Notes: generated from the sequence alone by a model not told the origin. A stretch of DNA of 64,000 bases from an uncultured Kofleriaceae bacterium (GCA_964419605.1 CAYQQM010000001.1:51620-115619); one strand, 5' to 3'; shown: positions 33,096 through 37,382, counted from the stretch's first letter. Numbers and translations are program-made.

Positions 33096-34100
33096 TCAGC
33101 GCCGAGCTGATCGATCGATCCGGTAGCCGGACACCATAGCCGCGCCCCAAGCGTAGCCCAGACCTGCGATTTCACGCGGGCCCTCGGTCAGCAGAAGCTT
33201 CTGCGCGATCTGTCGCAACCGCGCCGGCGGCGTGGCACGCAGGATGTCGTCGGTCGAGGGCAATATCCGAGAGCTAGGGCCGAGATCAGGGCGCTCGCTG
33301 CGACCGGCCGCGAGGTTCTCGGTCATCTGCAACACGGCGGTCACCGATCGGCGCAGGCGATACCGCCGGGCGCGGGCCAGAAGTTCGTCGCGCTGGCCTG
33401 TGGTCAAACGCTGCCACAATCGATGCACGTCGAGGAAATTGATTGCGGGCACAGCGAGCTCGTGACGCGACGCGTGGACCATACACAACATCAGCTCGTC
33501 GATGCGTTCGAGGCGAAGCGCTCCACTGCCGCGATCATCCGGCGAGGTGCGCTCCCAAATTTCTCCCAGCGGCATCCGCATCCGGGTGCGCTGCTGAATG
33601 TTGCGGTGAAGTTCCAGCATCATGTCACCGCGACAAAACGCGATCGCGTGGTAGTGGTCGCTCAGCTTCCGAACCATCCCAACCCGTACAAACCCGAGCT
33701 CGGTCACGGCCTCGATCGCAATCGGTAGCTGCTCGAGGCGCACCAGCAGGTCGATGTCGTTCATCGGCCGCTCCGCCGGATCTGGGTATATCGTGCCGAT
33801 CAGCGACACGCCCTTGAGCAGAGCTGCGGACAGACTGCGCGTTGCAAACGCGGCAATGACCTTGCGCAGTGTGCGGGCGCGCCGGTCGGCCATGATCAAC
33901 GACGCAGCGTACTCCTGCCGAAGTTCGGCTACTCCGCGGGTGTACGCGATCGGGCCCATGTGCGCCGCCTTTACAAGCGCGATCGGCGGCGGCACCGATA
34001 GCGGTCGCTCCGCCATCACATCGGCCACAAACGCACGCATCTTCTCCACGTCGACCGGGCCGCAAGCGCCTAGGTGGGAGGGTTCCTCATCGGTGCTCAT
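33096..34100 (-). CDS. Uncharacterised nucleotidyltransferase (NTP_transf_5-type)
   Basis: 334 aa. LLKGVSLIGTIYPDPAERPMNDIDLLV...ELGF...LELH matches the pattern I recall for this family. Confidence 0.7.
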   Translation of the reverse strand: MSTDEEPSHLGACGPVDVEKMRAFVADVMAERPLSVPPPIALVKAAHMGPIAYTRGVAELRQEYAASLIMADRRARTLRKVIAAFATRSLSAALLKGVSLIGTIYPDPAERPMNDIDLLVRLEQLPIAIEAVTELGFVRVGMVRKLSDHYHAIAFCRGDMMLELHRNIQQRTRMRMPLGEIWERTSPDDRGSGALRLERIDELMLCMVHASRHELAVPAINFLDVHRLWQRLTTGQRDELLARARRYRLRRSVTAVLQMTENLAAGRSERPDLGPSSRILPSTDDILRATPPARLRQIAQKLLLTEGPREIAGLGYAWGAAMVSGYRIDRSARR

Positions 34101-34101
34101 G

Positions 34102-34132
34102 CGAGTAGGCTCTGCGCTAGCTCCAGCGCTCG
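34102..34132. repeat. 31-bp direct repeat, copy 1 (CGAGTAGGCTCTGCGCTAGCTCCAGCGCTCG)
   Basis: Identical 31-mer at 34949-34979, compared base by base. Confidence 0.9.
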
Positions 34133-34142
34133 GGTCCGTAGG

Positions 34143-34415
34143 TTACGATGCGAGCTGTTCTGGCAGTGGCAGCTGAAAATGACCCGCAACAATGCCTCGG
34201 ACGGTAATATCCTCGTCGAGAGCCTCCCAACGAAGTGCCGCGCCGTTGCGGCGCAACTCAACCGCCATGAGCGCTGCATCGCTTGCATCCCGAAGAAGCT
34301 TGAATCGGTCGGCTGGGAAGCAGATCTGGCGGCCATCGGTCAACTCGACGAAGATCGTTCGTCCATTGACCCAAACGCGAATGGCCCGGGGATCACTTTG
34401 CTCGGAAGAATTCAT
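34143..34415 (-). CDS. DUF2442-family small protein
   Basis: 90 aa. The pattern [30 protein letters not shown]...[16 protein letters not shown] is typical of DUF2442. Confidence 0.75.
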
Positions 34416-34931: not shown

Positions 34932-35744
34932 TTATATTTCTCCGGACACGAGTAGGCTCTGCGCTAGCTCCAGCGCTCGCTCGGGCGTTCGGGTGTGCAG
35001 CCGGTAGAGCGGCACGCCGGCAAGGGCCGGGCCGAGCTTTGGCAGGTCGCGATGGGTGCGATGGAATACGGCGGGCCACAGCGCCGCGAGCGCTTCGCCC
35101 GTCGATAGCCGCTGGATCGCGTCACTGGCATCCGGACCGTGTGCGATCGAAACGATGGCTGCGGTCGATGCTGTGCCGCGCCACATCTGGGATTGCGGTG
35201 GGTGAAACAGCCGAAATGTATTGCGCGGATGCGGGCGCAAAGGATAATCGTCGACGATGAACCCGAGAGGAGTCGCAAGGTCCGGATCTGCGACGTGCAG
35301 AGCCCGCGCGAGGCCTCGACAGGTGCCGTCTGAGCCGATCGCAACACACTCTTCGGACAGGTAGTGCCAACCGCGAGCGAGCAGTGCGCGGACCAGCGTG
35401 CTCTTGCCCGACCCAGACTCGCCAGCAACCACCATGGCGCGCCCGTCACCGGTAACCACCGCGCCGGCGTGAAACGCGATGTCGGCGGTGTACATCAGCA
35501 CGCGCGACACGAGATTGCGCTCAAACGCCGGAATCAGGTCGATCGGCTGCTCGACGCGAATCATCACGTCCTGCTCGAGCCAAACTTGTGGCGGCGGCCC
35601 AGCGTCGAGAACGTACCGAATATCGGGTGTCTTCGAACTGTCCGCGTAGGACCGCAGCACGCCCGCAAGCGGCGCCTCGACCTCGACCGCGTTCGTGGCT
35701 ACGCGAACCGAAACACCTAGACAGTCGACGACGCGGTGCCACAT
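34932..35744 (-). CDS. HPr-kinase-C-terminal-like P-loop protein (HprK-related kinase)
   Basis: 270 aa. HAGAVVTGDGRAMVVAGESGSGKSTLVRALLARGWHYLSEE is the HprK-like P-loop region. Confidence 0.75.
   Translation of the reverse strand: MWHRVVDCLGVSVRVATNAVEVEAPLAGVLRSYADSSKTPDIRYVLDAGPPPQVWLEQDVMIRVEQPIDLIPAFERNLVSRVLMYTADIAFHAGAVVTGDGRAMVVAGESGSGKSTLVRALLARGWHYLSEECVAIGSDGTCRGLARALHVADPDLATPLGFIVDDYPLRPHPRNTFRLFHPPQSQMWRGTASTAAIVSIAHGPDASDAIQRLSTGEALAALWPAVFHRTHRDLPKLGPALAGVPLYRLHTRTPERALELAQSLLVSGEI
34949..34979. repeat. 31-bp direct repeat, copy 2
   Basis: Identical to 34102-34132. It encodes ...RALELAQSLL at the 3' end of the HprK-like gene. Confidence 0.9.
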
Positions 35745-36007
35745 GACTCCAGGATTCCGTCCTGTACAAGCCGCGCGATCAGAGCCTGGACGTCGCGCTG
35801 CATCGCATCGGCACTCTGGTCGGGAAACGTTTGTGCAAAGGCATTGGCAACATCCGATTCTGTACCCTCATCGGCAAGCAGTTCGAGGACTGCGAGCGCA
35901 GCGGCGTTAACGATCACCGCCTCGGTGCCATCCGAACGAGCCACGACGGCATCGCCGTCGGGCAGCGCGCGAATGGCAACGTCAGGTCTCAGCCGCAGCC
36001 GCATCAT
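35717..36007 (-). CDS. PqqD-family protein (likely RiPP recognition element)
   Basis: 96 aa from the ATG at 36007, which overlaps the radical SAM stop (ATGA). MMRLRLRPDVAIRALPDGDAVVARSDGTEAVIVNAAALAVLELLADEG...DVQALIARLVQDGIL is a typical PqqD pattern. Confidence 0.75.
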   Translation of the reverse strand: MMRLRLRPDVAIRALPDGDAVVARSDGTEAVIVNAAALAVLELLADEGTESDVANAFAQTFPDQSADAMQRDVQALIARLVQDGILESCGTASSTV

Positions 36008-37158
36008 GTTGGCCCCCCTAGAACTACAAGGGCGCGCTCGGTGAGGCGACAGCTTGCACACTGAAGCCTCAGTTCAGGTTCGGCGGCTACCGGAAGTGCG
36101 TGTGTGGGCACGGCGCGACGGGTCGGCGTGCGGCCCAACAAATCGAGCAATGAGCCGTCGCGAACATTGCCAAGCACCGCAGCGCGCTGAAAGATACAGG
36201 GCACGACATCGCCGGTATACGTGACACATAGCTTTCCGCGGCGCGAGGCCATCGGTCCCGCTCCGGTGTGCGTGCTACCCGCGGGGTCGCGCATCGCCAG
36301 CGCTACCGCCCTACCCGCCTCGGCTACGGCCTCACCCCGGCCCACCGAGTAAGCTCGCGTCCAGTCGACCTGTTTCACACCGCGTGCATGCAGGTCATCG
36401 ACGAGGTCCTGGATGCCGGTCTGTTGGTCGATGACGATGATCGAAACGCGAAGCTCGAGCCCGGACCCGACCACGCGATCGATCGCCGCGAGGGTTCGGC
36501 GCTGGCTTCCCGGGGTGCGCGTGATTCGGTCGTGCTCGTTGGCATCGATCGAGTACATCGAAAACGCAAACGCGGGGCGGGCCGGGGCAAGCTGCGCGAG
36601 CAGGTCGCCATGCAGCGCCAAACCGTTGGTGTAGATCTCTAGGTGCGGAATGCCGCGCGCTCGGGCATGTGCCACAGCGTCGGGCAGAAAATCGCACAAC
36701 AGCGGATCGCCACCGGTGAACTGGATGCGGCGAAACCCCAGGTCCACGGCTTGGTCGATCACAGACAATGCGGTGGTGCGCTCGAGGGCCGCCTCAACCG
36801 AAGGGGCTGAGTCCGCATAACAGTGCACGCACCGCTCATTGCACCGACCGATGAGCTCGAGAAACAGCGTGTCAAAGCCATCCAGCCGAACCACGTCGAG
36901 CCGTGTCAGAGGTACCGAGGGCGTTGCGAGCCAGTCGGTCAGCTCTCCGAGCGCAGCGTGGGCGGGTGCCCATCGCGTTAGGGTCGAGGTTGGCGCTGCC
37001 TGTGCGAGCGATGCTTCGATCTCGGCGCAAATCGGCCCCTCGACGACCGCGCGCTGCCCCGCCTGGTTGATGAGCACGAACGCGCCCTGTCGACGCGCGA
37101 CCAGCCCGCCCGCTTCAGGAAAAGCCCGACCCAACGCGACGGCGGCCAGAGCGTGCAT
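36004..37158 (-). CDS. Radical SAM enzyme with a C-terminal SPASM/twitch-type auxiliary-cluster region
   Basis: FLELIGRCNERCVHCYA (CxxxCxxC), FTGGDPLL, and C-terminal KLCVTYTGDVVPCIF (C-x9-C containing GxxxxC) plus LQCASC (CxxC). The N-terminal extension of about 100 aa is unassigned. Confidence 0.9.
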   Translation of the reverse strand: MHALAAVALGRAFPEAGGLVARRQGAFVLINQAGQRAVVEGPICAEIEASLAQAAPTSTLTRWAPAHAALGELTDWLATPSVPLTRLDVVRLDGFDTLFLELIGRCNERCVHCYADSAPSVEAALERTTALSVIDQAVDLGFRRIQFTGGDPLLCDFLPDAVAHARARGIPHLEIYTNGLALHGDLLAQLAPARPAFAFSMYSIDANEHDRITRTPGSQRRTLAAIDRVVGSGLELRVSIIVIDQQTGIQDLVDDLHARGVKQVDWTRAYSVGRGEAVAEAGRAVALAMRDPAGSTHTGAGPMASRRGKLCVTYTGDVVPCIFQRAAVLGNVRDGSLLDLLGRTPTRRAVPTHALPVAAEPELRLQCASCRLTERALVVLGGPT

Positions 37159-37382
37159 TACCTCACCGGCGGGCAGCCTATAACGGGGGGACAGTTGTCA
37201 GGTACGCAGCCACTAGGACGACAGCCGCCGTTGGGCACGCAAGATCCTGCCGGCTGGCACCCCGCCTGCTCCAGCGTGATCACGCCAATTACCATCGGCG
37301 GAACGTACTTCGCCATCCGCAGGAGACGTCGTCGCCCTGGGTTCGCAAGCTCTGCACTCGAATCCTCGTTGTCGTGGGACAT
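37158..37382 (-). CDS. Candidate RiPP precursor: 74-aa peptide with a Tat-like leader and six Cys-x-Pro repeats
   Basis: MSHDNEDSSAELANPGRRRLLRMAKYVPPMVIGVITLEQAGCQPAGSCVPNGGCRPSGCVPDNCPPVIGCPPVR. Its TAA stop shares one base with the radical SAM ATG (TAATG). The start choice (ATG 37382) is uncertain: there is an alternative ATG at 37421, and the track ORF extends to 37562. Confidence 0.55.
   Translation of the reverse strand: MSHDNEDSSAELANPGRRRLLRMAKYVPPMVIGVITLEQAGCQPAGSCVPNGGCRPSGCVPDNCPPVIGCPPVR

Follow-up and report, generated by a model that had tools for sequence, protein, structure and literature searches.

A conserved five-gene RiPP-type cassette of Myxococcota with a Cys-x-Pro-repeat peptide as its predicted precursor

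We analysed a 64,000-nt stretch of DNA from an uncultured Kofleriaceae bacterium (GCA_964419605.1, CAYQQM010000001.1:51620-115619; hereafter, the window), in which a first-pass annotation had proposed an uncharacterised pathway for a peptide that is ribosomally synthesized and then post-translationally modified (RiPP), with a small Cys/Pro-repeat open reading frame (ORF) as the precursor. This ORF is followed on the minus strand by genes for a radical S-adenosylmethionine (SAM) enzyme, a PqqD protein, an HprK-like kinase and an NTP_transf_5 nucleotidyltransferase (Table 1), and we found that the unit is a conserved but undescribed five-gene RiPP-type cassette of myxobacteria. The proposal was supported by the conservation of the ORF, by the purifying selection that appears to act on it and by the structural match of the radical SAM enzyme to the peptide maturase SkfB. 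By analogy, the cassette would work most like a hybrid of the phosphorylation module of paeninodin-type and linear polyphosphorylated peptide (LPP) clusters and an SkfB-like radical SAM maturase, with a precursor led by a signal peptide as the substrate.

Conservation of the cassette and its precursor family

All five ORFs are present at the coordinates and on the strand first proposed for them, with the motifs CNERCVHC, GDVVPC and CASC in the radical SAM enzyme and GESGSGKST in the P-loop protein. The junctions also read as described: TAATG couples translation of the precursor ORF to that of the radical SAM gene, the next two junctions are overlaps of 4 nt (ATGA) and 28 nt, and a relic ATGA stands at 34100 before the NTP_transf_5 gene. 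Since the kinase-like and NTP_transf_5 genes overlap by 4 nt in homologous loci, the originally coupled five-gene unit that the first-pass annotation had deduced from these junctions is seen directly and goes beyond inference. A promoter and terminator scan of the region was uninformative, with results at or below the shuffle expectation. The precursor is absent as a called protein from the public collection, and its ORF is not annotated in the source record.

The cassette recurs, translationally coupled, in dozens of Myxococcota loci on independent contigs. Hundreds of relatives of the radical SAM protein were found, nearly all in Myxococcota metagenome-assembled genomes (MAGs; Myxococcales, Polyangiales, Kofleriaceae, Haliangiales, Hyalangium and Sandaracinaceae), and the order small ORF, radical SAM, PqqD, kinase-like gene holds in every locus long enough to judge. 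As to whether a short ORF with CxP repeats co-occurs with the radical SAM homologues, a test suggested on first reading, such an ORF adjoins the gene for the radical SAM enzyme in all homologous loci that are complete. The kinase-like and PqqD genes are present in essentially all complete loci, PqqD keeps its 4-nt and 28-nt overlaps with its neighbours, and NTP_transf_5 is placed either after the kinase gene with a 4-nt overlap or, in one clade, divergently upstream. The association of this gene set is far beyond chance, and the flanking genes are not conserved among the homologous loci. When all ORFs of the ~47 longer loci were clustered, no protease or transporter was conserved, which extends the earlier remark that none is visible near the cassette in the window; the recurring neighbours were clade-specific only (Wzz/BY-kinase, AsnB-type amidotransferase and a Stig1-repeat protein). 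In the full-text literature, with subscription-only papers outside its coverage, we found no description of radical SAM, PqqD, HPr kinase and nucleotidyltransferase in combination. The earlier statement that no described product combines the four enzymes stands for the literature, with the qualification that the four-enzyme set is also found in Acidobacteriota/Binatia-type loci, with a different peptide.

We then examined the precursor family, a set of 101 distinct sequences made up of 60 from the loci plus additions from protein searches (an exhaustive protein search gave 43 representative clusters, 24 of which were retrieved by sequence). The window precursor has an acidic N-terminus, RRRLL, YVPPMV, a hydrophobic stretch ending in LEQAG-C and a core that consists of GSCVP and five more Cys-x-Pro units, with CPPVR at its C-terminal end. 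An RRx-hydrophobic2 motif is present in 100 of the 101 precursors, followed by Lys or Arg in 72 of these, and [YW]xxPx[LVIAFY] is present in all 101, starting exactly 9 residues after RR in 98. The first unit reads Ser-Cys-x-Pro in 96 of the 101. Among the 60 locus-derived peptides, 306 of the 354 core Cys residues (about 86-87%) are followed by x-Pro, against 76±7 in composition-preserving shuffles; the highest count in 2000 shuffles was 100, and the observed one lies about 30 standard deviations above. These 60 peptides carry 2-9 C-x-P units each, with a Cys-Cys spacing of 5-7 that peaks at 5-6. Within the repeats only Cys and Pro are conserved, and Arg at position +4 is not among the common residues of the units.

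Between the Y..P motif and the core lies an uncharged hydrophobic stretch that ends in one of two ways, either in an A-x-A site, often with Lys or Arg before it (AHA-Q, ANA-K, ASA-Q, AWA-A; 26/60), or in x-(A/G)-G-Cys (33/60, including the LEQAG-C of the window). The conserved Ser of S-C-x-P is found 1-5 residues past the predicted A-x-A cut, or 5-6 residues past the junction Cys. By its pattern, the leader is Tat-like: it is laid out as in a twin-arginine signal peptide, with RRxLL(K/R), a mildly hydrophobic stretch and the A-x-A site or x-G-Cys junction, and it encloses a motif of the kind bound by the RiPP recognition elements (RREs) of lasso-peptide and LPP clusters. No Pfam or NCBIfam model, Tat-signal models included, meaningfully matches the precursors at E values up to 10, so that the Tat reading is drawn from this pattern anatomy. 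Compared with a 93% relative, the precursor ORF shows 15 synonymous and 4 nonsynonymous codon changes, with all four replacements in residues 8-11; judged by these substitutions, the ORF is under purifying selection.

A comparator for RRRLL...LEQAGC is encoded elsewhere in the window, where a xylose-isomerase-like TIM-barrel protein (30177-31073, +) starts with MSQLRFSRRALLKGLAMFGVTGLSSC, a canonical twin-arginine motif and then a lipobox. Divergent precursor subfamilies with the same leader occur in the homologous loci L118 (3355-4206), L129, L138, L140, L142 and L151. Both L118 and L140 encode two precursors, which in L118 are tandem peptides of ~110 aa with a larger Cys-rich domain (11-12 Cys), and another group of precursors has only S-C-x-P-S-A-C-x-P-C, followed by a Lys-rich tail.

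The radical SAM enzyme and its partner proteins

The hidden Markov model (HMM) searches suggested by the first-pass annotation gave matches to Radical_SAM (E 3e-16), SPASM (E 2e-5, just above the cut-off with 25 vs. 21.5 bits), PqqD (E 5e-9) and NTP_transf_5 (E 3e-33), and a weak one to Hpr_kinase_C (E 0.08). In an alignment of 28 radical SAM homologues, C106-x3-C110-x2-C113 is invariant, as are C321, C367 and C370 in the C-terminal domain, C155 is conserved in ~90%, and C311 is Ala in several members. The spacings of the C-terminal cysteines in the window enzyme are C311-x9-C321 (GKLC..GDVVPC) and C367ASC370; this domain has no CX2CX5CX3C motif and lacks the full seven-Cys pattern of SPASM. 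Since C311 is replaced and only C321, C367 and C370 are invariant, the domain is, by its cysteine pattern, a twitch-like one with a single auxiliary cluster and not a two-cluster SPASM domain. The SPASM/twitch auxiliary domain claimed on first reading is thus retained as a twitch-like, one-cluster remnant, and a full SPASM domain is dropped, the count of invariant Cys being too low. The best NCBIfam match was StsB (65 bits vs. a cut-off of 625), with AlbA at 31 vs. 850 and ScmF at 60 vs. 400; the enzyme belongs to no curated maturase family, with all NCBIfam scores about 10-fold below the cut-offs.

In the AlphaFold (AF2) model (mean confidence, pLDDT, of 83), four strands and three helices within residues 10-76 lie ahead of the barrel. 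The best structural matches in the PDB, obtained with Foldseek, were SkfB (E 3e-12, 374 columns) and SuiB, which align over about 374-400 columns, the full length of the enzyme; an anaerobic sulfatase-maturating enzyme (anSME) was also among the matches, at rank 42. Both SkfB and SuiB mature peptides and bear an RRE at the N-terminus; a twitch domain is a further feature of SkfB. As modelled, the N-terminal domain (~residues 10-76) seems RRE-like, and the discrete PqqD of the cassette probably serves the kinase/nucleotidyltransferase pair. The first-pass annotation had held that membership of a family with a known non-peptide substrate would count against a RiPP pathway; the enzyme was placed in no such family, and its top structural match, SkfB, is a peptide maturase.

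For the PqqD protein, the best NCBIfam match is the lasso-peptide PqqD chaperone, below its cut-off. The kinase-like protein scored 12.9 bits against a cut-off of 33.3 with Hpr_kinase_C, 40.8 against 200 with TIGR04352 (E 1e-10, far below the cut-off in bits), 32.2 against 200 with TIGR04355 and 19.4 against 125 with ScmC, and its homologues carry precomputed weak matches to PF27840 ScmC. H92 and the Walker A motif G111-x-G113-K-S-T116 are invariant in its alignment, and the profile matches to the HprK/P structures 1ko7 and 1jb1 span residues 86-143, beyond the P-loop. Its AF2 model (pLDDT 94) matched ATP-dependent phosphoenolpyruvate carboxykinase (PEPCK; E 1e-7) and HprK/P (E 5e-5) in Foldseek. 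PEPCK and HPr kinase/phosphorylase share one fold, and the kinase-like protein is modelled with this PEPCK/HPr-kinase fold. In the NTP_transf_5 protein, a Polβ-type K96-G97 ... D115-x-D117 signature is conserved across 22 family members.

Known systems, a proposed maturation route and its alternatives

Two groups of Bacillota clusters share the partner proteins of this cassette. HPr-kinase homologues phosphorylate the C-terminal Ser of paeninodin-type lasso precursors, and in the case of pseudomycoidin a lasso-associated nucleotidyltransferase adds one or two hexoses to the phosphate, which bears out the statement in the first-pass annotation that HprK-like kinases and nucleotidyltransferases act in lasso clusters (PMC8498205). 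Its second statement, on PqqD/HprK neighbourhoods that lack a radical SAM enzyme, agrees with the LPPs, which were defined by Popov et al. (Nat Commun 2026) and are said to be restricted to Bacillota (PMC13381572). LPP clusters have a conserved trio of a discrete RRE, a kinase similar to HprK and an NTP-transferase, and their precursors carry the motif YxxPxVLxHQxIxFETxxS; the kinase polyphosphorylates a core Ser (Ser3 in LppA), and the peptidase requires presentation by the RRE (PMC13381572). The same paper makes no mention of radical SAM enzymes, and gives [Y/W]xxPx[L/V/I/A/F/Y] as the general binding motif of the discrete RREs of lasso, LPP and PQQ systems (PMC13381572).

As in the case of LPPs, the present cassette combines a PqqD-type RRE, an HprK-like kinase and an NTP-transferase, all 101 of its precursors contain the YxxPx[V/I] part of the leader, the core has a Ser a few residues from its start (that of S-C-x-P here, Ser3 in LppA), and leader removal would be tied to signal-peptidase-type chemistry; both also tend to lie near polysaccharide genes. 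However, LPP clusters have a SipW-like signal peptidase I and an MsbA-like exporter, neither of which is found in the window or conserved in the ~47 loci, and no radical SAM/twitch maturase such as the one encoded here. A peptidase like that of the LPP clusters is encoded only in the Acidobacteriota-type sister cassette described below. Unlike the LPP leader, that of the cassette lacks the HQxIxFET part and is Tat-signal-like instead, the core is made of Cys-x-Pro repeats, and the hosts are Myxococcota and not Bacillota. In the lasso systems of paeninodin and pseudomycoidin, too, a nucleotidyltransferase and a homologue of HPr kinase tailor the peptide, the RRE is discrete and PqqD-like and the leader has [Y/W]xxP, but the window has no Asn-synthase-like C protein and no B2 cysteine protease, and a C-terminal Ser, the site of phosphorylation in the lasso precursors, is not conserved here. 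Only one clade has an AsnB-type amidotransferase nearby, and the GATase domain of this protein is intact.

With SkfB and the sactipeptide and ranthipeptide systems, the cassette shares an RRE, a radical SAM core and an auxiliary Fe-S domain, of the single-cluster twitch type as in SkfB, as well as a Cys-rich precursor that is adjacent and translationally coupled. The ranthipeptide maturase PapB, which makes freyrasin, acts on repeated Cx3D units, and the repeated short Cys units of the present core similarly suggest one local modification each. The sequence similarity to SkfB-type enzymes is nevertheless at the superfamily level only, the C-x-P unit has no conserved acceptor side chain, and a Tat-like leader and a partner kinase and nucleotidyltransferase do not characterise those classes. 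SynChlorMet cassettes (ScmC/ScmE/ScmF) also combine an HprK-related ScmC-type protein with radical SAM/SPASM enzymes; they differ in having two radical SAM genes where this cassette has one, in their type of precursor and in the low scores reached here (ScmC 19 bits vs. 125, ScmF 60 vs. 400). To our knowledge, NTP_transf_5 is not part of the SynChlorMet cassette. With anSME the predicted likeness is that of a radical SAM enzyme acting on Cys in the C-x-P context of an exported protein, but anSME has two auxiliary clusters and no RRE and modifies one site per protein with Arg at +4, in contrast to the tandem sites here, in which this Arg is not conserved.

The leader has its nearest counterpart among the bufferins, oxazolins and DAG-RiPPs, the MNIO-type RiPPs in which signal peptides of the SPI or SPII type serve as leaders, so that no dedicated protease or exporter is needed (PMC13056109). 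A secretion-signal-like N-terminus, the lack of a dedicated protease or exporter and, as we propose here, the modification of Cys in the cytoplasm are common to these systems and the cassette, and in DAG-RiPPs an extra invariant Cys at the junction of signal and core, which is the lipobox Cys, marks a lipoprotein route (PMC13056109, bioRxiv 2024.03.18.585515). Those systems differ in using an MNIO (DUF692) enzyme and a Sec-type SPI/SPII signal; in the cassette the enzyme is a radical SAM one, the motif is of the twin-arginine type and an RRE-binding motif lies within the hydrophobic region. In summary, the cassette lies outside the groups against which it was tested, namely the sactipeptide maturase families, SynChlorMet, LPPs as defined, lasso peptides and anSME.

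Distant relatives of the radical SAM enzyme (~28% identity, with a full SPASM domain) occur in Acidobacteriota, Binatia and unclassified proteobacterial MAGs, in a likewise undescribed sister cassette that encodes NTP_transf_5, a peptide of 55-87 aa, an S24/S26 signal-peptidase-like protein, an HprK/ScmC-like protein, PqqD and the radical SAM enzyme. Its peptide carries the motif ...Y.KP.F....FET.AL.CGK...C. Because of this leader motif and the peptidase, the sister cassette resembles, in sequence, an LPP-type cluster from outside Bacillota to which a radical SAM enzyme has been added. The trio of RRE, kinase-like protein and NTP_transf_5 is thus joined recurrently to radical SAM enzymes across phyla, with differing precursor families. 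The sister loci are L020, L034, L039, L063 and L070 (for instance, L063 2986-9279), and in L063 a CPA2-type transporter-like protein follows.

We consider it on balance probable that the precursor is matured by two modules and is then exported through the twin-arginine translocation (Tat) pathway and cleaved by a signal peptidase. In the first module, the SkfB-like radical SAM enzyme, which from its architecture would bind the precursor through its own N-terminal domain, would modify each Cys-x-Pro unit of the core, most likely by giving each a single local crosslink from sulfur to carbon (thioether-type) or some other radical modification centred on Cys. As the fourth ligand, C311, is dispensable, the auxiliary cluster could have a site free for a substrate thiolate, as in CteB. 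In the second module, if the LPP and lasso systems are a guide, the discrete PqqD-type RRE would bind the Y-x-x-P-x-V motif (YVPPMV in the window), the HprK-like kinase would (poly)phosphorylate the Ser that is nearly invariant in the first S-C-x-P unit, and NTP_transf_5 would decorate or extend that phosphate. The leader anatomy and the set of missing genes suggest that modification takes place in the cytoplasm and that export by the general Tat pathway follows, and Tat accepts folded or modified cargo. Release may be by the housekeeping signal peptidase I, or by a lipoprotein route in the x-G-Cys clade, to which the window belongs. As no protease or exporter is conserved and the leader is Tat-like, Tat export and housekeeping cleavage are probable, and such a leader could explain why both genes are missing.

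Several observations weigh against this two-module route. No curated Tat-signal model scores on the precursors, and their N-terminal region is much more conserved than ordinary signal peptides, with a fixed distance between RR and the RRE motif; hence, RR could be a feature recognised by the enzymes and not a Tat motif. The junction of the window clade, LEQAG-C, has Gln at -3 and is no canonical lipobox. A homology between the N-terminal domain of the radical SAM enzyme and the PqqD of the cassette was not significant in hhalign (probability of 4%), which places the fused-RRE assignment at the fold level only. The acceptor atom of the proposed crosslink is not indicated by the repeats, in which only Cys and Pro are conserved. 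On the side of the second module, the kinase-like protein reaches the cut-off of none of the curated HprK-related families, its scores falling far short, and the ScmC family, which it resembles, has no known activity; the NTP-transferase LppN was inactive in the only LPP study (PMC13381572), and in the window the insert uncouples NTP_transf_5 from the operon by breaking its translational coupling to the kinase gene, which makes its expression uncertain there.

In a more far-reaching version, which we think rather unlikely, the product belongs to a new class of exported RiPPs: the leader is a genuine Tat signal that doubles as a RiPP leader, and PqqD is a Tat 'proofreading' chaperone similar to TorD or DmsD that, bound to YxxP inside the hydrophobic region, would hold the precursor until it has been modified. 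The radical SAM enzyme would then carry out a new Cys-x-Pro reaction, and the phospho-Ser extended by NTP_transf_5 could anchor the peptide to an envelope polysaccharide or lipid. If true, such a mechanism would reveal the function of the nucleotidyltransferases of LPP and paeninodin clusters, and would make the LPP trio a module that spans phyla and is combined anew with one primary maturase or another.

An ordinary antimicrobial RiPP of the sactipeptide/ranthipeptide kind, with RR as a binding determinant, an optional kinase and nucleotidyltransferase, and a protease and an ABC transporter encoded elsewhere, would account for the classical signature of a radical SAM enzyme and an RRE beside a Cys-rich peptide, for SkfB as the top structural match, for the fixed RR-to-Y spacing within a highly conserved leader and for the lack of matches to Tat HMMs. 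We regard this explanation as doubtful, since RRxLLK and an A-x-A after basic residues are textbook Tat features that recur in divergent clades, and since none of the ~47 longer loci has a linked protease or exporter. In addition, the kinase and PqqD are found in essentially all complete loci, which makes them core and not optional. A little more doubtful still is that the peptide is an exported protein or lipoprotein of the cell envelope, whose Cys-x-Pro units are matured as by anSME or QhpD (QhpC) and whose Ser decoration ties it to the envelope or to polysaccharide. The enzyme anSME converts Cys to formylglycine at the C-x-P-x-R of sulfatases, which the C-x-P units recall, the more so as the window peptide ends in CPPVR; anSME is among the structural matches at rank 42, the leader is signal-peptide-like, and in the clade of the window an extra invariant Cys ends the hydrophobic stretch, as in DAG-RiPPs. 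Sugar or polysaccharide genes also lie beside several cassettes, and the LPP and paeninodin clusters are in capsule loci. These polysaccharide neighbours, however, vary by clade and may be coincidental, the lipobox is non-canonical, and anSME has a full two-cluster SPASM domain without an RRE, whereas the enzyme here has one cluster site. With this difference in architecture and with Arg at +4 not conserved in the repeats, anSME-like formylglycine formation was ranked low.

Pairs of PqqD and a radical SAM enzyme make pyrroloquinoline quinone (PQQ) and mycofactocin, the YxxP motif is common to PqqA leaders, and the single invariant S-C-x-P could be the sole site that matters, as it would be if the peptide were a sacrificial scaffold on which a small cofactor or metabolite is built from one residue in the manner of PQQ, mycofactocin or pearlin. 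We consider this improbable: although the repeat number varies from 2 to 9, no unit departs from the C-x-P pattern, as would be expected if all of them are used, genes of a cofactor pathway, such as those for a peptidase or an oxidoreductase, are not conserved in the ~47 loci, and the signal-peptide anatomy argues for the export of the peptide itself. Least credible of all is that the enzymes act on something other than a peptide, for instance a polysaccharide or lipid precursor, and that the small ORF is unrelated or non-functional. Such a substrate could be imagined from the presence of NTP_transf_5 and kinase-like proteins of unknown specificity, the sugar genes nearby and the missing annotation of the peptide in public records, but the ORF is conserved at the protein level in 101 variants and always lies beside the radical SAM gene, its substitutions are biased towards synonymous ones, TAATG couples it to the radical SAM gene, and the cassette has two RRE-type peptide-binding elements, one of them predicted. 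From the conservation of the ORF, a non-peptide substrate appears effectively refuted.

If the two-module route with Tat export holds, the cassette would represent a new class of precursors built from tandem Cys-x-Pro units, and the reaction of its radical SAM enzyme would probably be new as well. The trio of RRE, HprK-like kinase and NTP_transf_5, which has been experimentally characterised only in the lasso and LPP clusters of Bacillota, would be a portable module that has been joined to radical SAM maturases in Myxococcota and in Acidobacteriota/Binatia-type genomes. The idea of a signal peptide as a leader, confined until now to MNIO enzymes and Sec, would reach radical SAM enzymes and Tat-type signals; clusters of this kind would then lack proteases and exporters and so escape cluster-based mining. 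The cassette would also be a compact five-gene system for assaying NTP_transf_5 activity. Its attraction lies in RiPP enzymology and genome mining, with its chemistry and role predicted from sequence and structure models.

Feature coordinates, the insert and neighbouring genes

Table 1. The cassette and the insert in the window, with the basis of each assignment.
Feature	Coordinates	Strand	Basis
Precursor peptide (predicted), 74 aa	37158-37382	-	ORF; no Pfam/NCBIfam model matches
Radical SAM peptide maturase (predicted), 384 aa	36004-37158	-	Pfam, NCBIfam, alignment, AF2 model, Foldseek
Discrete PqqD-family RRE, 96 aa	35717-36007	-	Pfam PqqD E 5e-9
HprK/ScmC-like P-loop protein of predicted kinase fold, 270 aa	34932-35744	-	Weak HMM matches; AF2 and Foldseek
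847-bp insert: one 31-nt repeat copy and inserted DNA	34133-34979	.	Direct repeat; comparison with L164
NTP_transf_5 nucleotidyltransferase, 334 aa	33096-34100	-	Pfam E 3e-33

The insertion between the kinase-like and NTP_transf_5 genes, given as 847 bp in the first-pass annotation, has exactly this length and is bordered by a perfect 31-nt direct repeat (34102-34132 and 34949-34979, spacing 847), in which the 3′ end of the kinase-like gene is duplicated. The insert contains a DUF2442 gene (34415-34143, -; Pfam) and a truncated DUF4160 remnant of 44 aa (34527-34393, -), as well as an extra low-GC segment of ~290 bp (34590-34877), in which an imperfect inverted repeat lies at 34664-34686 / 34761-34783. 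The relative L164 (93% identical; 4867-5552) has the same insert and repeat with an intact DUF4160 and DUF2442 pair; compared with it, DUF4160 is truncated in the window and the ~290 bp have been added. Since L164 shares the insert, it is an old passenger in this lineage and not part of the system.

A second toxin-antitoxin-like cassette in or beside the operon is formed by a HigB/RelE-like toxin (32438-32707, +) and an HTH antitoxin (32697-33014, +), the latter also a capH/HTH_VI match in PADLOC. This pair sits between the NTP_transf_5 and LPG_synthase_TM genes, and as these two abut in L164, it is a lineage-specific insertion. The region directly upstream of the precursor (37540-40372, -) encodes a 662-aa protein, weakly matched by AAA_16, and, overlapping with it, a 280-aa protein of no known family; they have no PADLOC match and are conserved only in the closest relatives, L163 and L164. 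Both genes were considered as members of the cluster and rejected, being absent from all other loci. Further upstream, a Uma2-family putative restriction endonuclease (40533-41105, +) matches the PADLOC candidate defence family PDC-S03 (E 6e-20).

Sugar and polysaccharide genes near the cassette in the window (27706-32376) encode a GT2 protein, an epimerase, two sugar-isomerase-like TIM barrels and LPG_synthase_TM. In L001 (2617-6518), rml-like dTDP-sugar genes lie beside the cassette, and in the clade of L007 (2748-4841) and L008 (8157-10331) its neighbours are Wzz/BY-kinase and AsnB-type amidotransferase genes. The sugar genes beside several cassettes recall the position in capsule loci that has been reported for LPP and paeninodin clusters (PMC13381572).

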